UHGV virus genome: UHGV-0236300
Strand: one strand, 5' to 3'
DNA length: 64,000 nt
Source of the DNA: a virus
Shown: piece by piece, positions 3,833 through 47,522 of the stretch
Numbering within the stretch: position 1 is the stretch's first letter
How the letters are laid out: each line of letters begins with the position of its first letter
Translations under genes and position numbers: made by a program
The notes under the pieces: model-generated
The model's input: only the letters and a program-made list of their open reading frames with translations
Told to the model about the DNA's origin: nothing
Database searches by the model: none

Positions 3833-5176
3833 ATGAGTAAAACCAAATTAGAACTTACCTGGATAGGTAAGAACGAGCGCAAAAAGCTAGAGCCTCACAT
3901 TTTGTTAGAAGATTCGAGCAAGTCTTATTACGCCAGTAAAAAGGTGACCGAAAACGATATTTTTGATAATAAACTGATTTTTGGAGATAACTTACTGGCA
4001 TTGAAGGCACTAGAGCAAGAGTATGCAGGCAAAGTGAAGTGTGTTTACATAGACCCGCCATTCAATACCGGAAGGGATTTTGAGCACTACGATGATAGCC
4101 TGGAGCACTCCATTTGGCTGGGCTTAATGCGGGACAGATTAGAAATAATTCGTAATCTGCTAAGCGATGATGGAGTGATATTCGTTCACTTAGATGACTG
4201 CGAAATGGCTTATTTAAAAGTCTTGATGGACGAGATTTTTGGTCGTGCAAATCAGTTAAATACCATATCGATGACTACAAATTGCCCTTCAGGCTTTAAG
4301 GCAACAGGAACTACAGTTTTCTCCACAGCAAACTTTTTGCTTGTATATGCAAAAGATCGTACCAAGAAACCACTTAACAAAATCTATATACCTAAAGAGT
4401 ATGATACGGGATATAACAAATATCTATTAAACCCAGATGACCATTATAAAAGTTGGACGTGGTGCGGTATTGCCGATGCGTTTGCAAAGGCCAATGGCTA
4501 TAAAGATACAAAAGAAGCCAAGAAAAAACTGCCTGATACATTTGATGATGAATTAGCACAATTTGCAATTGATAATGCAGAACGTGTATTTCAATCCGTT
4601 GCAATTGGCGGTGGTGCCAAAATAAAGAGAAAAGAAACTATCGAGAAGTCAAAGAAAGATAGGGATAAGGTTTATGTACATCCAAATGAGGATGTCGAAG
4701 GCTTTTATATCGCAAATGGTAGGCAAATGGTCTTTTATTCCAATAGGCTTTTGGAAATTGACGGCAAGATGCAGCCTGCTGAACTAATAACTGATGTTTG
4801 GACTGACATTAGTTGGAATGGAATAGCAAATGAAGGCGGCGTTAGTTTCAAAAATGGAAAAAAGCCCGAAGCGCTTTTGAAGCGAATTTTCGAAATGTGT
4901 ACGCGAGAAGGAGATTTAGTCTTGGATTCATTCGGCGGTTCAGGAACTACTGCTGCCGTAGCTCACAAGATGAAAAGACGTTGGATCTCTGTCGAGTTAG
5001 GTGATCATTGTCATACCCATATCATCCCGCGCTTGCAAAAAGTGATCGATGGCAAAGATCAAAGTGGTATTTCTAAATCTGTAAACTGGCAAGGTGGCGG
5101 GGGCTTTCGCTATTACAAACTTGCCCCGAACTTAGTTATGAAAGATAAGCTTGACTCAGAAGAAGATTTAGAGTAA
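3833..5176 (+). CDS. DNA methyltransferase, beta-class amino-MTase (N6-adenine or N4-cytosine)
   Basis: Motif IV IDPPFNT precedes motif I VLDSFGGSGTT (beta-class order); SD AAGGAGA 10 nt upstream. Confidence 0.8.
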   Translation: MSKTKLELTWIGKNERKKLEPHILLEDSSKSYYASKKVTENDIFDNKLIFGDNLLALKALEQEYAGKVKCVYIDPPFNTGRDFEHYDDSLEHSIWLGLMRDRLEIIRNLLSDDGVIFVHLDDCEMAYLKVLMDEIFGRANQLNTISMTTNCPSGFKATGTTVFSTANFLLVYAKDRTKKPLNKIYIPKEYDTGYNKYLLNPDDHYKSWTWCGIADAFAKANGYKDTKEAKKKLPDTFDDELAQFAIDNAERVFQSVAIGGGAKIKRKETIEKSKKDRDKVYVHPNEDVEGFYIANGRQMVFYSNRLLEIDGKMQPAELITDVWTDISWNGIANEGGVSFKNGKKPEALLKRIFEMCTREGDLVLDSFGGSGTTAAVAHKMKRRWISVELGDHCHTHIIPRLQKVIDGKDQSGISKSVNWQGGGGFRYYKLAPNLVMKDKLDSEEDLE

Positions 5177-5235
5177 TATTTAAAATATCTAAGGGTAGGT
5201 CTACTCTTCACACAAGATAAGGAGAACACCAAACG

Positions 5236-5478
5236 ATGAAGCGTTATAAACCATACACTTTTGAAATCGATTTCGAACTTGACGATATGCTCACTGTAGA
5301 AGCTCAGGCAGTTGTCCAGTTGCCAGATCCGGAGTGCCGTGATTCTGATGTTGATTATTATGGATTTAGACAGATTACTGATGTGCATGTTTACCACACA
5401 ACGGAGAAGAGGTGGATTTTCACCAGTTACCAAACGATCTGCGCCACTCGATTTACAAACGTGCAGCACGTGAACTAG
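5236..5478 (+). CDS. hypothetical protein
   Basis: ORF with 5' leader nearly identical to that of the MTase at 3833 (TAAGGAGARCACCAAACGATG). Confidence 0.45.
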   Translation: MKRYKPYTFEIDFELDDMLTVEAQAVVQLPDPECRDSDVDYYGFRQITDVHVYHTTEKRWIFTSYQTICATRFTNVQHVN

Positions 5479-27526: not shown

Positions 27527-28322
27527 TTCGAAATTGTCACGATAAGTTATTATACACAGAGAAATCTTTAGTCGTCTAATGTTTACTGTACATTACTATA
27601 CTGACTGGAATCATTAGATGACTAAGAGAAAGATAAGAAATAATTAATAATGTAATTGTTTTACCTGTAACAATAAGGCAACTATGCAAACGAATGGCAT
27701 GGCGCGACGGAGTCGCGACATAATATAAAAGCAGTAACAATCACCCCCGTGATAGTTTTTCTGCAATCTATTATTCAGATCATAGTTGCCTTGTATTTAG
27801 TTAATCATGACATAACAAGCAAGGCAACTATAGATCTTCTAATAGTTGCCCTGCTTTTATATTATGTCATAGATTGTTATCTTGTTAATTGTTTTCATGC
27901 AAACGAATGTCATGGCTTATCATCTCTGTGTAAACAATTTGGGCGTAAACTATTCAGATGAAAACTATTCAGGCGTAAACAGTCTATGCGTAAACAGTGA
28001 GATATGGAATAGTAACAGCCGTTATTGTGTCATATTGTGTCATTGTGTCAAAGGTAAAAGTGTCAAAAGTGACAATTTTGTCACATTGTGTCAGACAAGT
28101 TTTTCTCCTCTTTGTCAAGTGCCGCATGAAAAATTTACAAACTGGTATGGTAGCATTTTTGCGGCCCTGTTTACATTCAGGAATGTATGTATAATCCTTG
28201 CTGTGTGGGCGTTTAGACGTCTGGACGGTCAGAAGTCAGCAGGTCAATATCTAATCTATTGGTTGCTAACTATATCCCACACAAATAGTAAGAAATATAA
28301 TTGTTATGTGCGTAAACAGTAA
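27527..28322. repeat. iteron-like repeats (core GCGTAAACAGT) in a noncoding region
   Basis: (T/G)CGTAAACAGT at ~27527, ~27974, ~27988, ~28310; GCGTAAACT at ~27944; AAGGCAACTAT and its reverse complement recur at ~27673, ~27783, ~27821, ~27843. Confidence 0.55.
28025..28120. repeat. array of TTGTGTCA-type short repeats
   Basis: TTGTGTCAT x2, TTGTGTCAA, GTGTCAAAAGTGACA, TTGTCACA, TTGTGTCAG, TTGTCAAG within ~95 bp. Confidence 0.55.
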
Positions 28323-28622
28323 CTCATGTTATCAATCCCTGTATGTATCGCCAGTGGTGCGCATAATGGGTATTATGTTAAATTGCCCGTAATGATAACC
28401 ATTCTCACAATGATAGGTATTCTCATTCATCCCCACAAGATAGATTGCAAATGTTGTGCCACTGTGTGAACGGCCTCACCTATTAATTTGCCTCACTGCC
28501 TCGATATTTGAGAATTATTATAAAAAATGAGAAGTATTCCCATTCCGTCCGCCTGGCAGCACTCCTGTAGGACAAGCACAACATCGGGGTATAACTGGAC
28601 CTGTTCAGATATTTCTGGCTGA

Positions 28623-29162
28623 CTCTTCAGGCCTGTGTGGGAAAAGCCAACCTCTCCGGCGGCGGGGAGGGGGGTCAATTAAAAAATTTACGTGGTGTAT
28701 GAAGCGCTCTTCAGGCAAGGTGTGTATTATGGGATGAAACCCTCTTCAGGTGATGATATTTGTGGGGGGATATTTGCTGGAAAGCCAGATATGACGGGGC
28801 TCCCGGCGGGGATGGGGTAGTACAGACAGGGAAAATGTGGGGATGTGGTGGGAGTAAATTGATCAAGTAGGTAGGATATGGAATATGTTACAAGTATGTT
28901 AAATATAGAGGTAGGATATTTGTGAGATTTGTGTGTAAAATCAAAGACTTAGGTGGTGTTGTGGTATTTTCTATAAATAATTCAAGTTTAATAGGTGATA
29001 TTTGTCTCCATCCACTTTGTGTGGTAAACAGCTCCTAATTGAATTGGTTTACAAGTGTATATAAAGTATACAAATTAAAGATATAAGAAACCCCCCTCCC
29101 CCTTCGGCTACCATTCACCTTTTCCTCTGACTGGTACTTAAACACTTATTCAGACTCTTCAG
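28623..29162. repeat. dispersed 9-mer CTCTTCAGG (4 copies here, 5th at ~29814)
   Basis: Exact 9-mer at ~28623, ~28707, ~28742, ~29154 and ~29814; about 0.5 copies expected by chance in 64 kb. Confidence 0.55.
28664..29101. repeat. 12-bp G-rich inverted repeat pair (GGGGAGGGGGGT / ACCCCCCTCCCC) flanking a GT-skewed segment
   Basis: Perfect reverse complements at ~28664-28675 and ~29090-29101; the intervening plus strand is almost devoid of C and holds G-runs. Confidence 0.5.
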
Positions 29163-29526
29163 GTTATCACCCCTATACTATATGGCAGTGACTGGTGTCC
29201 TCCGGCCCCTCTTTCGCCACCCGTCCGCTTCGCCATGCTAATGCCATAGCCAAAGGTTCGGTTGTTCACCCTGTTCACTCAGGTGTATCTCCATACCCCT
29301 TCAAACCGAAGAGAACAGAAAACCCGAATTACTCGGTAAAAGAAAAGAGAAGAACTTAATTTTATCAAGATAGGCAAGAATGTCAAGGGATGACTGCTCA
29401 CTAAACAAGCAAACAGTCATGTGTGGTAGGTAAGTAACTGGGTTGGTAGGAAATTTAGTTGGAAGATGTTATAGGTGCCTCCAGAACCTTAGCTGGGCAG
29501 CTAAACCTGCAAAGCAGACTTGTGTG

Positions 29527-29808
29527 TCAGTCCAAAGGTTCATCTACTACTTCACTGAAATCAATGTTCAGGGTCTCTTCCCAACCATCAATCTCAGCAC
29601 CAGAGTAGAGATCTTTAGGGTCTACATCAAGGGCTTCCGCAACAGCATCTATATTTAACACTTCTGGCAGGTAAGATTCATCGAATTCAAGGTAAATCAG
29701 GCCACGAGTGTTGTCAGTCCCACCAAATATTTCTATTTTCATGAAATCTCCTCTGGAAATGAGAGTGTGAACAGGGTTTATACGTTCCAATACGCTGGAA
29801 TTATGCAC
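29527..29808 (-). CDS. hypothetical acidic protein
   Basis: ORF with GTG start; very acidic composition. Confidence 0.5.
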   Translation of the reverse strand: MHNSSVLERINPVHTLISRGDFMKIEIFGGTDNTRGLIYLEFDESYLPEVLNIDAVAEALDVDPKDLYSGAEIDGWEETLNIDFSEVVDEPLD

Positions 29809-29862
29809 GTTTGCCTCTTCAGGCCATGCTTTAGCATGATAAACTTATGTGGGCTCGGTGCT

Positions 29863-30048
29863 TCATAGTCTCCCACCTCTGAACTCTTCGTGCTCGGGCA
29901 TAATAGAGAACCAGATGGCTATGATATCTTCCCACGTTAGGTCATCAGCCTCAGGATCCACCTGGGACGGAGATAGAGAATCCTCAGAATTGAAGTTTTC
30001 CTCTATCACTCCTTCAGATGTCTCTGTAGATGCATGTGTGTTGGTCAT
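29863..30048 (-). CDS. hypothetical acidic protein
   Basis: Short acidic ORF. Confidence 0.4.
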   Translation of the reverse strand: MTNTHASTETSEGVIEENFNSEDSLSPSQVDPEADDLTWEDIIAIWFSIMPEHEEFRGGRL

Positions 30049-30546
30049 GTTCCACCCGTGAGTATTCCGGCAACATGTTTAAAAAATAAGACTTTATCAA
30101 CATATGGCCGGAACGTGTCGATGCCATAAGCATATTCCTGCAACAGCCGCTATGGACGTAATGATCATCAGGATCACCACTAAAACCTCTGACAATGTTT
30201 TCATTGTGTATTCCATATTATCCAAACAATGTGTGGATACTATCACAGGGGCGGTAATGTGTCAACAGAAGCGCCGCGAGGGTTTGGTTAAAATCCGAGC
30301 GTATGGTGATTTGGGTCAAAACGGGCGTGCGTTCTCGCTACGCTCGAAATAGAGAGTTGTTTGTAGGATGACTTTAAACGCTCTGTAAGGAGATTAATTG
30401 TCTAAGGTATGGAATCGTGCACCAGATAAAGAAAAGGACGCCACAGAGCGTCCTAGGTGCCTTAAATTTGATATTTTGCTATACCCATGAGGGCTTGTCT
30501 AGGTTGGAGTAACTGAAGGGGGTCAAAAGGTGACTGTCAAAATCTT

Positions 30547-30789
30547 TCAAACTGTCCAAGTCTTTTCCTCGTCCTGACACCATCTGTGCCTGCATTTATT
30601 GTTGTAGTGCATGGAATGCATAGCGTTCTGCAACTTAATAGGTACAAGTGATTCAGGAGTAGATAGAATTGTTGGGTATGCCAGGACTATCTCGAACAAT
30701 GGAAACACATCGAAACTGAAGTCTATTTCTGCTGAGGTTGCTGGCATATAGGAGTATTTAGCTGTCGTTGTAGACATAATCCACCTCAC
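30547..30789 (-). CDS. hypothetical protein
   Basis: ORF coupled to the upstream gene. Confidence 0.45.
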   Translation of the reverse strand: MRWIMSTTTAKYSYMPATSAEIDFSFDVFPLFEIVLAYPTILSTPESLVPIKLQNAMHSMHYNNKCRHRWCQDEEKTWTV

Positions 30790-40976: not shown

Positions 40977-41013
40977 AGATGACCCCCCCTCTTGTTGAAA
41001 ACAAAATACACTA

Positions 41014-41298
41014 CTACCAGGTCACTGTCAAGTAGGCAACTGTGTTATTTTTCTCCGGGGAGATGCCAACAACATCCACCCGCAGACCTCCTGCCCTCAA
41101 ATCCCCAACGATGTGTGGGAAGTAGTCTGAGAGGTGTGATGGAAGATTTATCGAAAATCCGCATCCCAGAAAGCCTGCTAACGCCTTATTTTGTATCTCC
41201 CCTACAATCGCATCATAAATGGAGTTAAGCTCGTCAGGGAGAGTTACAGGACGTTTTAGCGCTAACTGGTGCAACTTGTCCTTAGCACTCATTTTCAT
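41014..41298 (-). CDS. hypothetical protein
   Basis: Track ORF 41014..41367; likelier start is the internal ATG forming an ATGA overlap with the MTase stop. Confidence 0.45.
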   Translation of the reverse strand: MKMSAKDKLHQLALKRPVTLPDELNSIYDAIVGEIQNKALAGFLGCGFSINLPSHLSDYFPHIVGDLRAGGLRVDVVGISPEKNNTVAYLTVTW

Positions 41299-41828
41299 TT
41301 CAAGTCTGCCTCCGGAGGTGCCAACCACATAAATGGTGGTAGGTCTAAACGGTTCTTCTTGTCCCACACAAAATATGCATATGCTTGCCCGTCAGTTCTG
41401 CCATTAGATTGGAATGATGGACGCTTAGATATTGTGATCACAGTGGTAGGGGCATTATCAAGCCACCATTCAAATCTGGCCTTGCTTTCCAGAAAATTAA
41501 GACGCAAAAGCATAATAACTACGTCAGCATCTTTCAACGCCTTGTCCACAAACTCACGAGCCAGGCTGTACGGCGGGTTGGTGATAATACAGTCAACATG
41601 GTTGTATTCCGTATTCAGATAGTCAACACCTTCTTGGATTTCTCCCCATGCAGATCCTAACGGCATACGGGAGTAGAATACACCTGAGGCGCTATTCCTG
41701 CAAGGCTCCAAATAGGTCCAATCTTCTGGGAACGGAATGAGGTTATACAACCCTTCTGCACACCACTCTGGTGTCACATATTCATCATAGGCGTTACGTT
41801 GTTCGTCAGGTTTTCTAGCACAAGTCAT
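41295..41828 (-). CDS. small DNA N6-adenine methyltransferase (phage Dam-like)
   Basis: Catalytic motif IV ITNPPYS; small size (177 aa) as in phage T1-type Dam proteins. Confidence 0.6.
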   Translation of the reverse strand: MTCARKPDEQRNAYDEYVTPEWCAEGLYNLIPFPEDWTYLEPCRNSASGVFYSRMPLGSAWGEIQEGVDYLNTEYNHVDCIITNPPYSLAREFVDKALKDADVVIMLLRLNFLESKARFEWWLDNAPTTVITISKRPSFQSNGRTDGQAYAYFVWDKKNRLDLPPFMWLAPPEADLK

Positions 41829-41840
41829 GCAAATCTCCAG

Positions 41841-41865
41841 ATCATAAAAGCCCTCCGAAGAGGGC
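41841..41865 (-). terminator. rho-independent terminator (minus strand)
   Basis: On the minus strand GCCCTC-TTCG-GAGGGC followed by TTTTATGAT, directly after the ClpP-like gene stop. Confidence 0.6.
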
Positions 41866-41879
41866 TTTAAGATTAATGT

Positions 41880-42929
41880 TTAAGCTTCTTCGACAATTCC
41901 TGCGCCCAGGATTTTTTCATTGAGCTCTTTTGCTGTTTTAATAATATTGTCAACCAGACGCTTGCGGGTCTTATCTTTAACCTGAACTTCTTCACCTCCG
42001 TTCAGGGTGGTTTTCAATTGGGACAAAATGTCCTGAAGCTCTACCACAGAGAATCGCTGCAGATCTTCCGAGGTAATCTCACCCAGTGCAATCTTAACGG
42101 TCTCACCACTCTCCATCTGCAGATTCAGGAACACAGTGTGAACATCACCTTTCATACCATTTGCTTTTGCAGACTCAACAGCATGAACCAGCTCGTCCAG
42201 AGATGTGCATTGGTGAATCTCTGGCAAACCTGCTTCACCTAGCACACCTTCTTCATCACTTTTTGCCAAAAGCTTTTTCGGTTTCTGTCCATTCTGAATG
42301 TGCTGAATGTTTTCATCGTCCAGAATGATAGCACCAGTTCGAGATGCCAGCTCTTCTCCATCCAACCACACTTCGCCACCAGCTGTGATGGATGCGATCT
42401 CATCTTCTGTCAGAACCCCACCGTAGTATTTTTCAATCAGGCGTTCAAAACGTTTCTTCCAGTAGTTAACCTGGGTATTCATGTTCACACCGTTGCCATA
42501 GGTGCCACCTTGATAGTAGTGGAACATAAACTCTGTGTCCGGAGCCACAGTTCGTTCTTTGCACCCCAGCCATAAGATTGTTCCTGCTGAGCAGCACATC
42601 CCTTCAGCGTGTACAACAACGCTTGCCTGAGACTCGCGAAATGCCTGCAAATACGCCATAGCAATGTGAACGCAACCACCAGGGCTGTTAATGATTACAC
42701 GGATACTTTCTTCTGGCTGTGCCATACGAATTGTTTGCAAACGTGACATATGATCCTGCAAGTCTTCAAGATCGTCAATATAAAGGACGTGGTCAACAAC
42801 TGGCGTTGGGTAGCTATATGTTTCCATAATACCACCAGGCATACCGAACATTTTATTACTCATCGGTTCGAAGCCGTTCTGTTTTTCTTTCATACCGTGT
42901 ACCATGGTGCTACGAGGTGTTAAATTCAT
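41880..42929 (-). CDS. ClpP-family serine protease-like protein with C-terminal extension
   Basis: INSPGG motif, candidate catalytic Ser in GMCCSAG and His in FMFHYY; ~150-aa acidic C-terminal extension; start uncertain. Confidence 0.65.
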   Translation of the reverse strand: MNLTPRSTMVHGMKEKQNGFEPMSNKMFGMPGGIMETYSYPTPVVDHVLYIDDLEDLQDHMSRLQTIRMAQPEESIRVIINSPGGCVHIAMAYLQAFRESQASVVVHAEGMCCSAGTILWLGCKERTVAPDTEFMFHYYQGGTYGNGVNMNTQVNYWKKRFERLIEKYYGGVLTEDEIASITAGGEVWLDGEELASRTGAIILDDENIQHIQNGQKPKKLLAKSDEEGVLGEAGLPEIHQCTSLDELVHAVESAKANGMKGDVHTVFLNLQMESGETVKIALGEITSEDLQRFSVVELQDILSQLKTTLNGGEEVQVKDKTRKRLVDNIIKTAKELNEKILGAGIVEEA

Positions 42930-42990
42930 GTGAGGTCCTTAATGTTGGAAAGTTAAAAGCGATCTATTTAAACCTGATTATCATTTACCT

Positions 42991-43302
42991 TTATTTAGCA
43001 ATTACCATGGAATACTTACAATTGTCAGAAGCATCACAGGTCAACGATTGCCAGTCTACAACATACCACGTATCATTGTCAACAATTACTTTATCGCCTG
43101 TTCTGTAAAAGGTGTTGCTTTCAATAACACGAGACTCAGTGAAGAATCGGTGTCTCCGCTCACGCAGTAGTGCTAAGTTGATTATATTACCACCGCTGTC
43201 CTTAATCCACACATTCTTGTATCCTTTGTTTGCCAAAATTGTCTCGCCGTTATAGACAAATAGGCAGTATATTTTATTCAGTCTCTCTTGTATTGTAGCC
43301 AT
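42991..43302 (-). CDS. hypothetical protein
   Basis: ORF; no motif. Confidence 0.5.
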   Translation of the reverse strand: MATIQERLNKIYCLFVYNGETILANKGYKNVWIKDSGGNIINLALLRERRHRFFTESRVIESNTFYRTGDKVIVDNDTWYVVDWQSLTCDASDNCKYSMVIAK

Positions 43303-43401
43303 ACTGTCATTCTCCTTGCCTTGTTCGATAATATCTAAAACTTATCCGTTTGTCAACAATTGTTTTAGGTATTTAAGGGTGGAATAAACCACCCTTTTGT
43401 A

Positions 43402-44190
43402 TTACTCGGAAACAGGGGTCCAAATATGATTTGCACGATCCTCAATGAGATTGAGTGCAATCTGACGACCCAACCCGGAACGAACAACATCGTCTGGACT
43501 ATCAAAGCTGATCATTCCGACCTCAGGATCTGGATGGCGAGTAAAGAAATCCGTAACCCACGCAAGGCCAGATTTACCAGGAATGTCACGTTGGCTGTTA
43601 TCGCCCATAATTACAAGGGTTGCCTGATCAGAGATCCTTGTGATGATTGACAACATCTCTTCAGGGTTGGTTTGCTGTGCTTCATCAATAAGGACAAAGC
43701 ATCGTTCATCAAAACTACGACCACGAATGCTTTCAACCTCACAAATCTCGATACGGCTGTTCTGACCATCCCCAAGCATTGCTGCAAAAGCACCTTTGCC
43801 GACACGTTTGCAAATCGTGTCCATCATACTGCGAAGGTAAGGCCACAGTTTCTGCATTGCATTTCCAGGTTTAAATCCTGAAGTCTTTCCTGTTTGAACG
43901 TAAGGGCGTGCAACAATGATCTTATCAATCTCGTTCTTACGCAAAAGATCACCTGCATATGCGGATGCCATGAATGTCTTACCGGATCCAAACACACCGT
44001 TTACAATAATAATCTTACGCGATCCTAGATAATCAAGATACTTTTGCTGCTTTTTGTTCATTGGTCTAAGAGCTGGAGCTGTGTGCTCTCGTTCGTCAGC
44101 AAATTTCTCAGCAGCCTTACGCAGGCGATCAGATTTGCGAGCCTCTCTGGCTTCATCACGCATGCGTTTTGTTTCTTTAGCTCGACCCAT
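43402..44190 (-). CDS. phoH: PhoH-like ATPase
   Basis: Walker A GVFGSGKTF, Walker B-like VLIDEAQ; PhoH family architecture. Confidence 0.8.
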   Translation of the reverse strand: MGRAKETKRMRDEAREARKSDRLRKAAEKFADEREHTAPALRPMNKKQQKYLDYLGSRKIIIVNGVFGSGKTFMASAYAGDLLRKNEIDKIIVARPYVQTGKTSGFKPGNAMQKLWPYLRSMMDTICKRVGKGAFAAMLGDGQNSRIEICEVESIRGRSFDERCFVLIDEAQQTNPEEMLSIITRISDQATLVIMGDNSQRDIPGKSGLAWVTDFFTRHPDPEVGMISFDSPDDVVRSGLGRQIALNLIEDRANHIWTPVSE

Positions 44191-44228
44191 GTTGGGACTC
44201 CTTTCAGATTGAGATGTGTCAAGGACTT

Positions 44229-44579
44229 TTACTGCAACAGTTTTTCAATAGCCGCTTCCATGCTGCTTGCAACAGCCTGAACTCGGATATTCATCTCTTC
44301 TTGGCGGATCAGCTCCTTAAGCTCTTTAACGGTAAATTCTTTAGAGAAACCTTCCACCATAATCTTGTGCAAGGCTTCTTGCGTGTCTACTTGCAAGAAC
44401 TTTTCCAGTTTGTTGGCAGAGGCCTCTAAATCGGCCCGAATACGTGGGTCATCTGTTCGGTTCAGCATTAGGCGTAAGCCATCAAGATTGGTAGAAATAG
44501 CGTCTGCATGTTGAGTAACCAACCGTGGCAAAATGAGATCTACAAACTTACTGGCTAAATCAATACGCTCTTGTGTCAC
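44229..44579 (-). CDS. hypothetical protein
   Basis: ORF with GTG start overlapping the upstream small ORF stop. Confidence 0.5.
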   Translation of the reverse strand: MTQERIDLASKFVDLILPRLVTQHADAISTNLDGLRLMLNRTDDPRIRADLEASANKLEKFLQVDTQEALHKIMVEGFSKEFTVKELKELIRQEEMNIRVQAVASSMEAAIEKLLQ

Positions 44580-45401: not shown

Positions 45402-47522
45402 TCAGCAACCACAACTTCCGTAGTGCTTAACCCGTTCTATAACCTCAGCCTGCTTACCCTTATTGTAAGGGCGGGAGTTTGGACTAGACAGATACCCGGA
45501 TACGCGTCTGATCACACTGATCGTTCCTTCTTCATGGTTTCCACACTCTGGGCATACAAAGCCTTTAGCTGTTGCACTGAACTCGCCAGAGAATCCACAC
45601 TTAAGACATTTATCCACAGGCTGGTTAATACCAAAATACATAATGTGTTTATACCCGAAATCGACAAGAGCTTCTAAAGCATCTAAGTTGTTTTTCAGGT
45701 TAGGTGTTTCTATGTATCCAATGTTGCCGCCAGAAGAGATCATAGCAAAACCTTCCTCATACTTCCACTTGTCAAAAGGTGAGCTATTGATCCACACGGG
45801 TTGGTGGAAACTGTTGGTAAGGTATTCGTGCTCGTGCTTCAACACTTCAGGATATTCACGATCTAGACATGTTGCAGCCTTATAGCACAAGCTCTCTGAA
45901 GGAGTGCCGTACAAGCTGAATGCCAGACCACTTTCTTTTTTGTACCGATCACAAGCATCTTTCATGTGTTGAAGGATCCCAAGAGCTAAGGACTTGTCTC
46001 CCTCTCTGCCTAAAATCTGGCAGGTTTCATACACACCAATATACCCAATACTTATGGAAGCATACCCGTCATAGAAGAGTTTATCAATACTCTCTTCAGG
46101 ATCCAGGCGAGCAAGGGCCCCTTCACACCACATGATGGGGTTCTGCCCTGCCTTTGTTCCTTTTAGACGGTTAACTCTTACAAGGTGAGCCTCGTATGCC
46201 AGATCCAAGTACTCGTCAAGAACTGCAAAGAAATCAACACCTTCCGTTTTAGCTTTTGCCGCAATCATTGGTAGGTTAAGGCTAACAACACCCAAGTTGA
46301 ATCTGCCAAGGTATTTTTCATCACCCTCCGAGGTAACGTATTTGCCAAGGAACGACCTACATCCCATGCTTGTTACTTTGCCATCTGTTGAACCTGTCAC
46401 TTTACGATTTAGCGGAACAGAAACAAAGTCAGGATAAATCCGCTCTGCAGAGCATTCTAGGGCCAATCGTTTCAAATCATAGTTAGGATCCCCAGGGTTC
46501 ATGTTGACACCATCTTCTAAGAAGAACAGCACTTTAGGGAACACAGGCGTGATCCGTTCTTCACCAAGACCCATTTTGTGGACTTTCAAGTAGTTTTTGG
46601 TAATCATTCTACCAAAGACCGAAGTATCCAGCCCTAAACTTAATGTGATGAATGGGGTTTGCCCGTTGACAGAAGTTAACGTATTGATTTGGTAGAGCAA
46701 AGTTTGCATACTATCAAACACGTCTTTATCGGTCATTTGCATTGCAACAGTCTCAGCATCTGGCAACCAATGTTCCTGACAAAATTTAAGGTTCTTCTCA
46801 TAAGTTGCTTCAGCATATTGTGCCAGATAATGATCAATATGGCTCATAGTTTGACCACCATATTGAGCACTAGCTACTGCACTAGAGATTTGACTAAGGA
46901 TTGTTGTTGCAACCCCTATTGACTTCGGCTTACTGACATGGGCGTTGCCAATGTTGAATCCGTTTTCCAGCATATCCGGATAATTTACCAAACAACAGTT
47001 TGTTAACGGACTGATCAGGTAGTCAAGATCATGCACATGGATGAAGCCCTTGTTGTGCTCTTCTGAGACACGATCTGGCAGGATCTGTGTTGATGCAAGG
47101 TGTTTGCTAAGGATGCCTGCAAGCAGGTCACGATGAGTGTGTACATGATTAGTAGGCTTATTTGCGTTTTCTTTTGTAAATTCATCACAAGTACGATCCA
47201 AAAAGCCACTAATATCTGCAAGCAGTTTTCCACCTGCCTCTCTGTTATTATCTCTTGTCTGTCTATACTGGATGTATTCTCTGGCTGCACATTTTAAACC
47301 CATATCCATAAGAGCATCTTCAACAAGGATATGGATATTTTTTACAGAGATCGTGCACTGGTCGGTTGGCAGATTGTTGGCAACAACTTCATTAACCGCG
47401 CAGGCAATCCGGTAAGCTTCTTCTTCAGTATGCCCAGACTCAAGTAAGGCGGACTCTGCCGCCTTGATCACCTTAATTCCGTTATAAAACTCTTCTCTAC
47501 CGTCCCGTTTTACAACTTTCAC
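45402..47522 (-). CDS. nrdD: anaerobic ribonucleoside-triphosphate reductase (class III)
   Basis: C-terminal zinc site CLKCG...CPECG and glycyl-radical motif RRVSGYL. Confidence 0.9.
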   Translation of the reverse strand: MKVVKRDGREEFYNGIKVIKAAESALLESGHTEEEAYRIACAVNEVVANNLPTDQCTISVKNIHILVEDALMDMGLKCAAREYIQYRQTRDNNREAGGKLLADISGFLDRTCDEFTKENANKPTNHVHTHRDLLAGILSKHLASTQILPDRVSEEHNKGFIHVHDLDYLISPLTNCCLVNYPDMLENGFNIGNAHVSKPKSIGVATTILSQISSAVASAQYGGQTMSHIDHYLAQYAEATYEKNLKFCQEHWLPDAETVAMQMTDKDVFDSMQTLLYQINTLTSVNGQTPFITLSLGLDTSVFGRMITKNYLKVHKMGLGEERITPVFPKVLFFLEDGVNMNPGDPNYDLKRLALECSAERIYPDFVSVPLNRKVTGSTDGKVTSMGCRSFLGKYVTSEGDEKYLGRFNLGVVSLNLPMIAAKAKTEGVDFFAVLDEYLDLAYEAHLVRVNRLKGTKAGQNPIMWCEGALARLDPEESIDKLFYDGYASISIGYIGVYETCQILGREGDKSLALGILQHMKDACDRYKKESGLAFSLYGTPSESLCYKAATCLDREYPEVLKHEHEYLTNSFHQPVWINSSPFDKWKYEEGFAMISSGGNIGYIETPNLKNNLDALEALVDFGYKHIMYFGINQPVDKCLKCGFSGEFSATAKGFVCPECGNHEEGTISVIRRVSGYLSSPNSRPYNKGKQAEVIERVKHYGSCGC

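Follow-up and report, generated by a model that had tools for sequence, protein, structure and literature searches.

What does a phage use a ClpP-like protease for when the gene lies outside its head module? This question is raised by a stretch of 64,000 nucleotides (nt) of the virus genome UHGV-0236300 (the window; the term refers to the whole stretch that was analysed), which carries on its minus strand a gene for a ClpP-like serine protease of 349 amino acids (aa). A preliminary description, made from the DNA letters alone, had called the protein an orphan and had considered that it could either target host or defence proteins or serve as a decoy of the host Clp system. The analysis presented here suggests that it is fairly likely to be an active cytoplasmic ClpP-fold serine protease, which acts independently of the canonical host unfoldases and is not involved in head maturation. 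The earlier reading is partly supported: an extra, non-morphogenetic ClpP-family protease is encoded, but a decoy is disfavoured. The question reaches beyond this locus, and non-structural ClpP-like proteases recur in virulent phages, namely in rV5-like, PAK_P1-like, T5-like and KVP40-like phages, in ICP1 and in some jumbo phages.

The protease gene and its family

The gene and the parts of its product that are referred to below are:

41880..42929, minus strand: ClpP-like serine protease gene, 349 aa; open reading frame (ORF) orthologous to rV5 gp122
42290..42797, minus strand: ClpP-fold catalytic core, approximately residues 45-213, supported by AlphaFold2, Foldseek and family conservation
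Within the core, minus strand: oxyanion Gly85 (INSPGG), nucleophile Ser114, general base His137, acid Glu186 and handle helix 148-169
42215..42289, minus strand: sequence-variable linker, approximately residues 214-238, of which 223-238 are modelled as disordered
41901..42209, minus strand: lineage-specific C-terminal domain, approximately residues 241-343, with a helix, a beta-hairpin and a helix-loop-helix, and with invariant F293, E297 and R322

The gene is already known: it has been annotated and catalogued, and a probable role has been hypothesised before. The window belongs to a phage of the genus Vequintavirus (rV5/FV3-like Escherichia coli myophages). More than 110 complete genomes of this group match its region 41000-44300 with a nucleotide identity of 92-97%, and nearly all of them name the product 'ClpP ATP-dependent protease subunit', 'ATP-dependent protease' or 'ClpP-like protease'. 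The 2013 paper on rV5 (Table S3) lists gp122 as a 'ClpP (ATP-dependent) protease subunit' of 349 aa, flanked by the PhoH-like gp120 and the 103-aa gp121. rV5 gp122 and its Vequintavirus orthologues represent the same gene as that of the window, with 349 aa and 96-99.7% protein identity, and the rV5 locus shares the phoH gene, the 103-aa ORF, the methyltransferase gene, the promoter and the terminator, without any difference of substance. The profile phrog_5410 ('ATP-dependent protease', the Vequintavirinae-type long form) covers the whole protein (E 6.9e-154, residues 24-345 against profile positions 4-322/323). The term 'orphan' was therefore overstated, since the family is catalogued and annotated in these genomes. 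The gene of the window itself adds nothing beyond its annotated orthologues; what is added here concerns the unconserved docking pocket for ClpX/ClpA, the third catalytic position, which is Asp, Glu or Gln depending on the lineage, the clade-restricted orphan C-terminal domain, the promoter-to-terminator unit that includes the 103-aa ORF, and the linkage to phoH, which is conserved in several genera.

Catalytic core and active site

The translation of the minus strand contains the motifs INSPGG at residue 80, GMCCSAG at residue 110 (with Ser114) and FMFHYY at residue 134 (with His137), which had been taken to mark a ClpP (S14) catalytic region. This assignment holds: the Pfam family PF00574 (CLP_protease) matches residues 59-168 with 50 bits (E 4.2e-13), above its gathering cutoff of 20.2, so that the protein passes the family model of the S14/ClpP fold family. 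An AlphaFold2 model, which was built on a 20-sequence family alignment, reaches a predicted local distance difference test score (pLDDT) of about 90 for residues 45-220 and contains all secondary-structure elements of ClpP, including the long handle helix 148-169. When this model was compared with the PDB by Foldseek, the top 50 matches were all genuine ClpP chains (E around 1e-10, target-normalised template modelling score 0.64-0.70). The predicted structure is thus confidently that of ClpP, with the alpha/beta fold and the handle helix E that characterise the S14 family.

Ser114, His137 and Gly85 of the PGG motif do not vary in the 20-member family alignment, and their aligned counterparts in E. 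coli ClpP are S97, H122 and G68; the E. coli reference sequence was confirmed to be identical to PDB entry 1TYF. Their equivalents stay invariant when the homologues of ICP1, PWH3a-P1, PAK_P1, My1, ValKK3, Otagovirus and Barbavirus are added, that is, across 9 genera. The position of the triad acid is occupied by Glu186, an assignment that rests on family conservation and on a phmmer alignment to Pseudomonas aeruginosa ClpP, which pairs 'ERDFWL' with 'GGEVWL'; a whole-protein MAFFT alignment with E. coli ClpP was misaligned past His122 owing to the long extensions, and a core-only alignment based on a hidden Markov model (HMM) ended at E. coli residue 137. Across the 9 genera, this position holds Asp in four cases (ICP1, PWH3a-P1, T5-like and KVP40-like), Glu in three (Vequintavirus, PAK_P1 and Otagovirus) and Gln in two (the Seunavirus-type and Barbavirus homologues), and is hence acidic in 7/9. 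The triad and the oxyanion glycine of the ClpP/S14 family are accordingly found in the alignment, and Glu in place of Asp is a conservative substitution. The catalytic residues, on whose conservation the preliminary description had made its reading depend, are retained, and the pattern looks like that of an active serine protease, which argues against a dead decoy.

In comparison with bacterial ClpP (MEROPS S14; E. coli 1TYF), the phage protease has the fold, the handle helix, the triad positions and the oxyanion glycine within xNSPGG in common, whereas overall identity is only ~19-22%. It further differs by the Glu for Asp in the triad, by Gly in place of the Arg that precedes the acid in the bacterial ERD motif, by a helix B that is 5 residues shorter, by an N-terminal loop of unrelated sequence and by ~145 extra C-terminal residues, which include a folded domain. 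The glycine at this 'Arg sensor' position is found in all Vequintavirinae.

A second protease outside the head module

ClpP-related enzymes also serve as head-maturation proteases of phages, and the first alternative to be weighed is a morphogenetic or virion-associated role, in which the protein would either descend from a relocated ClpP-like prohead protease and be directed by its C-terminal domain to procapsids or to another assembly, or would be packaged and delivered with the DNA. The head module does not lie within the window; the whole genome of the well-annotated relative DrSchubert was read. Its structural block encodes a portal, a 139-aa 'prohead protease', a scaffold, a decoration protein and the major capsid protein. 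The second of these is:

DrSchubert 4838-5257 (bas50_0006): XkdF-type prohead protease, 139 aa; Pfam Peptidase_S78_2, 65 bits against a cutoff of 24

The 139-aa protein is 100% identical in the closest relatives of the window (ECP32, S127 BCL3, the NWU phages and VB-EcoM-WM), and 118 records carry it at an identity of at least 99%. In the RefSeq records of V18, Murica, APECc02 and HMD-6, the same protein is called a 'DNA methyltransferase'; this label was apparently taken over from phrog_1530, whose C-terminal part is matched by the protein, and is likely a propagated annotation error.

Since an S78_2 protease lies between portal and scaffold in the relatives, the ClpP-like protein comes in addition to a dedicated head protease and is encoded outside the head module; it is not the only protease of these phages. 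In the genome of the relative, its gene is ~100 kb away from the head module, in the nucleotide-metabolism block and in the strand block opposite to that of the structural genes. In the window, it lies between the genes for PhoH and the methyltransferase, so the placement outside a head-morphogenesis context, as proposed before, is borne out. The T5-like phage BF23 likewise possesses both a prohead protease and a 'Clp protease' (ORF45).

The ClpP-related head-maturation proteases (NF045542, phrog_1684, phrog_94 and phrog_2976) provide the closest curated HMMs, with E values from 1e-15 to 1e-23; they are phage-borne like the protease of the window and frequently carry C-terminal extensions, which in ClpP-like prohead proteases often serve as scaffold or targeting parts (NF045540 fusion family). 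The best curated matches are NF045542 (Clp_rel_HeadMat), which scores 62.8 bits and stays below its cutoff of 120, and phrog_1684 (E 1.9e-23). As a ClpP-fold (S14-like) peptidase, the family is placed between cellular ClpP and the ClpP-related head-maturation proteases of phages and reaches the curated cutoff of neither. Unlike the latter, the gene is not found between portal and capsid genes, and a late, head-linked expression is not indicated: it is preceded by a sigma70-type promoter of the early kind, which is not a late motif, and the genome has its own XkdF-type head protease together with a scaffold.

Data on virion content point in both directions. BF23 ORF45 was detected in purified virions at a low level, with 3 peptides, and the ClpP of phage G is found in virions; however, the signal of ORF45 was ~25-fold below that of the prohead protease, and it appeared alongside DHFR, a likely contaminant. 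In rV5, virion mass spectrometry (MS) by multidimensional protein identification technology (MudPIT) yielded 19 proteins, all of which are accounted for in the text and table of that study, and gp122 is not among them; likewise, none of six tryptic peptides of the protease of the window occurs in the rV5 virion MS table. Taken together, a morphogenetic or virion-associated function appears unlikely.

The docking surface for host unfoldases

The common product name implies another possibility, namely that the protein is a true ATP-dependent ClpP subunit, which redirects the ATP-dependent proteolysis of the host either by recruiting its ClpX or ClpA or by mixing with its ClpP. The ClpP fold with its handle, the Pfam score and the widespread annotation speak for it; in addition, phage G, which encodes both ClpP and ClpX, shows that phages can use ClpXP. 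However, every NCBIfam equivalog or subfamily model of ClpP stays far below its cutoff (TIGR00493 with 33.4 bits against 308.6, NF001368 with 38.1 against 249 and NF009205 with 41 against 228), and the identity to host ClpP is only ~19%.

The hydrophobic apical pocket by which E. coli ClpP accepts the IGF/LGF loops of ClpX/ClpA as well as acyldepsipeptides (ADEPs) comprises L48, F49, Y60, Y62, F82, I90, M92, F112, L114 and L189. Two independent alignments map Y60 to R77, Y62 to I79, F82 to E99, I90 to H107, M92 to E109, F112 to T127 and L114 to A129, while L48 and F49 fall into the 5-residue deletion of the phage protein and L189 is not alignable. Thus, within the reliably aligned N-terminal two-thirds, most pocket positions bear polar or charged residues, a feature that the family conserves; a hydrophobic pocket of the kind expected for a bona fide ATP-dependent ClpP is not found with this residue list. 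The N-terminal segment, from which the axial loops would be built, is unrelated in sequence to that of ClpP, has a conserved motif of its own (F28-G29...Y40-P41) and is predicted to be disordered. The substitutions suggest that host ClpX and ClpA are unlikely to dock in the canonical manner. They weaken both the database name 'ATP-dependent' and the notion of a decoy of the host Clp system, and annotators should note that the common product name 'ATP-dependent protease subunit' finds no support in the docking-surface residues.

In the genome of the relative, no phage unfoldase is annotated except for a distant MoxR ATPase. The text of a paper on a host-gene screen with phage LL12 makes no mention of Clp or of a protease, which is weak evidence. 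In view of all this, a function as ATP-dependent ClpP subunit seems quite unlikely.

The C-terminal extension

Beyond the ClpP core, from about residue 205 onwards, the protein continues for ~145 aa, which are made up of a helix (205-212), the variable linker and a folded domain (~241-343). In the 20-sequence family alignment, the linker is poorly conserved and variable in length, and the model assigns pLDDT values below 50 to residues 223-238. The C-terminal domain was modelled alone with a pLDDT of 75 and is folded. A '~150-aa acidic C-terminal domain' had been described for this part: an acidic extension of ~145 aa is indeed present, but it consists of a short helix, a linker and a folded domain (~241-343) rather than of one continuous domain, and its acidity (isoelectric point (pI) 4.7-4.9) is not distinctive, as the whole protein is equally acidic (pI 4.97).

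The domain has no Pfam family at its cutoff. When searched alone, it matches phrog_5410 with an E value of 1.4e-32, and a profile search against 1.84 billion cluster representatives returned only six proteins, which are of the same protease family or fragments thereof, plus one spurious match. The latter, a protein of 2508 aa, was rejected as it is a surface protein with Cna-B-type repeats. A viral structure library gave one significant match, a phage protein of 303 aa, which probably belongs to the same family. The C-terminal domain is a lineage-specific orphan appendage that is conserved within its clade.

Other phages carry the protease in different formats. The short non-structural ClpP-like proteins of phrog_1827, namely ICP1 gp211, PAK_P1 gp173, T5-like BF23 ORF45 / My1_040 and KVP40-like ValKK3 ORF255, resemble the protease of the window in their core, which is homologous at 25-36% identity and has the invariant Ser, His and Gly, and in their location among early or DNA-metabolism genes. 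In contrast, they lack the Vequintavirinae C-terminal domain, and some consist of the core only (182-238 aa). ICP1 gp211 (326 aa) and the PWH3a-P1 homologue (321 aa) have C-terminal extensions too; these differ from the Vequintavirinae domain and are not detected by its profile.

ClpP has its C-terminus at the rim of the apical face, on which the ATPases dock. The C-terminal domain would most plausibly act as a built-in receptor for substrates or partners, or as a gate.

Transcription unit and linkage to phoH

The expression of the protease can be predicted from the following elements, which surround its gene:

43328..43356, minus strand: sigma70-type promoter TTGACA-N17-TATTAT with 11/12 consensus matches, upstream of the 103-aa ORF
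42991..43302, minus strand: 103-aa ORF, orthologue of rV5 gp121 (phrog_5456, E 1.5e-36), between the promoter and the protease gene
41846..41868, minus strand: intrinsic-terminator-like hairpin AAAGCCCUC-UUCG-GAGGGCUUU, followed by UAU, directly 3' of the protease stop codon
43402..44190, minus strand: gene for a PhoH-like P-loop ATPase (Pfam PhoH, E 2.3e-47), upstream neighbour of the protease unit

Along the minus strand, the stop codon of phoH is followed by a hairpin without U-tract, the promoter, an AAGGAGA ribosome-binding site (RBS), the 103-aa ORF, an AAGGA RBS, the protease gene and the terminator; the methyltransferase gene starts 18 nt past the terminator hairpin. The terminator that had been attributed to the gene is real: the hairpin has a folding energy of -15.7 kcal/mol (z -3.2 against shuffled sequences) and is the same element as the predicted t122 of rV5, for which -14.9 kcal/mol is given. 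It was missed by a consensus scan because of its short T-run. Table S4 of the rV5 paper contains the same promoter as P121 in the list of sigma70-like and not of late promoters, and the late-promoter motif of rV5 differs from P121. Such a promoter would let the unmodified RNA polymerase of the host transcribe the protease unit, so that early or middle expression is predicted.

The 103-aa ORF, which has a homologue in Seunavirus 4MG (gp207, E 5.6e-7) and no Pfam match, is probably co-transcribed with the protease gene, as judged from this arrangement; adaptor, inhibitor and substrate are conceivable roles for its product. The genes around the unit fit the description of a location among DNA-metabolism genes: next to the PhoH-like ATPase, there is a DNA methyltransferase (phrog_799), and NrdG, NrdD, NrdAB and ThyA, which were assigned by synteny with DrSchubert, are encoded nearby.

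A palindromic GC-rich hairpin (AAGGGTGG...CCACCCTT; -13.9 kcal/mol, z -3.5) is located at 43375-43396, right after the stop codon of phoH. It has a T-run on the plus strand only and is not predicted in the rV5 paper; it may terminate antisense read-through or contribute to RNA stability.

A PhoH-like gene is found upstream of the protease gene, on the same strand, in Vequintavirus, Seunavirus 4MG, the Vibrio phages PWH3a-P1 and ICP1, Otagovirus phiPsa381 and Rheinheimera Barbavirus, and in Otagovirus phiPsa381, phoH and the ClpP-like gene even overlap by 8 nt. In an independent sample of 35 IMG/VR loci, which were found with a five-sequence alignment, a same-strand upstream phoH is present in 16/17 Vequintavirinae-type loci and in the ICP1-type locus, and in two further loci phoH lies at a distance of <2 kb, on the opposite strand. 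It is tempting to speculate that the protease is the proteolytic partner of the PhoH-like ATPase, with which it would form a phage-specific ATPase-protease or an RNA-linked quality-control module. Several observations argue against this idea. The linkage is absent from the jumbo, KVP40-like and small-contig loci of the IMG/VR sample as well as from T5-like My1, ValKK3 and PAK_P1. Moreover, the PhoH-linked genera share a wider set of replication genes, among them a DNA ligase gene that is located a few kb downstream in several of them, and in the window the protease unit is set apart from phoH by a hairpin and a promoter. Given this shared replication module and the intervening promoter, inherited synteny is the simpler reading. 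Finally, PhoH is an RNA-associated ATPase similar to superfamily 1 (SF1) helicases and not an AAA+ unfoldase. A functional coupling of PhoH and the protease is thus an interesting alternative of low probability.

It is highly improbable that the protein is a pseudo-protease without catalytic activity, which would act as a decoy by titrating components of the host Clp system: the triad acid is replaced by Gln in some homologues, but the Ser, the His and the Gly of the oxyanion hole do not vary across 9 genera, Glu occupies the acid position here, and the surface by which ClpX or ClpA would have to be captured lacks conservation.

Proposed role in the infected cell

An active protease that is neither part of head assembly nor plugged into the host Clp machinery could work as follows. 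Driven by the host-type, sigma70-like promoter, the two-gene unit would yield the 103-aa protein together with a phage ClpP-fold peptidase, which is predicted to be catalytically competent and to act in the infected cell. Its complete core with the handle helix would probably allow the assembly of a ring or of a barrel-shaped chamber. In the absence of a hydrophobic pocket, this chamber would most likely not dock canonically to host Clp unfoldases; instead, the C-terminal domain, held by its flexible linker near the ATPase-docking face, may receive substrates or partners or gate the entry. The substrates would be host or phage proteins.

That the protease targets host or defence proteins, as the preliminary description had suggested, may be true; a similar idea was put forward in generic form by Iyer et al. 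(2021), who proposed that the ClpP proteases scattered patchily among phages serve to attack host proteins. In a 2023 paper on the T5-like homologue, the function is explicitly stated to be unknown. If host or defence proteins are degraded, or if no canonical AAA+ unfoldase is involved, the family would represent a new mechanism of host takeover and a new variation on the regulation of ClpP. A more specific version, which we regard as a long shot, is an unfoldase-independent or PhoH-coupled machine, in which the C-terminal domain, possibly with the 103-aa protein, selects host defence or stress factors early in infection. Substrates would then be delivered to a ClpP-type chamber in a new way.

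Several points weigh against an active, unfoldase-independent protease without a role in the virion. The closest curated HMMs are those of head-maturation proteases, BF23 ORF45 has been seen in virions, and the rV5 virion MS was shallow and is compatible with packaging at low copy number. Docking to ClpX or ClpA may occur in a non-canonical way. The Gln at the triad-acid position in Seunavirus and Barbavirus may indicate that activity is regulated or dependent on a partner in some lineages. As a lead, these variants are reminiscent of Asn172 in Listeria ClpP1, an enzyme that is active only with a partner ring. In addition, no functional study of any family member, be it biochemical or genetic, was found in the literature.

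Further observations in the window

At the point where the plus- and minus-strand gene blocks converge (~28320-30550), a stretch of ~2.2 kb lacks ORFs of at least 100 aa as well as tRNAs, Rfam families and conspicuous repeats; in DrSchubert, the syntenic stretch (92,425-94,930) is likewise unannotated. The ORF of NrdD (45402-47522, minus strand) has a longest form of 706 aa, which starts from a GTG that may not be the true start; the DrSchubert orthologue comprises 636 aa (1911 nt), with small ORFs annotated upstream.

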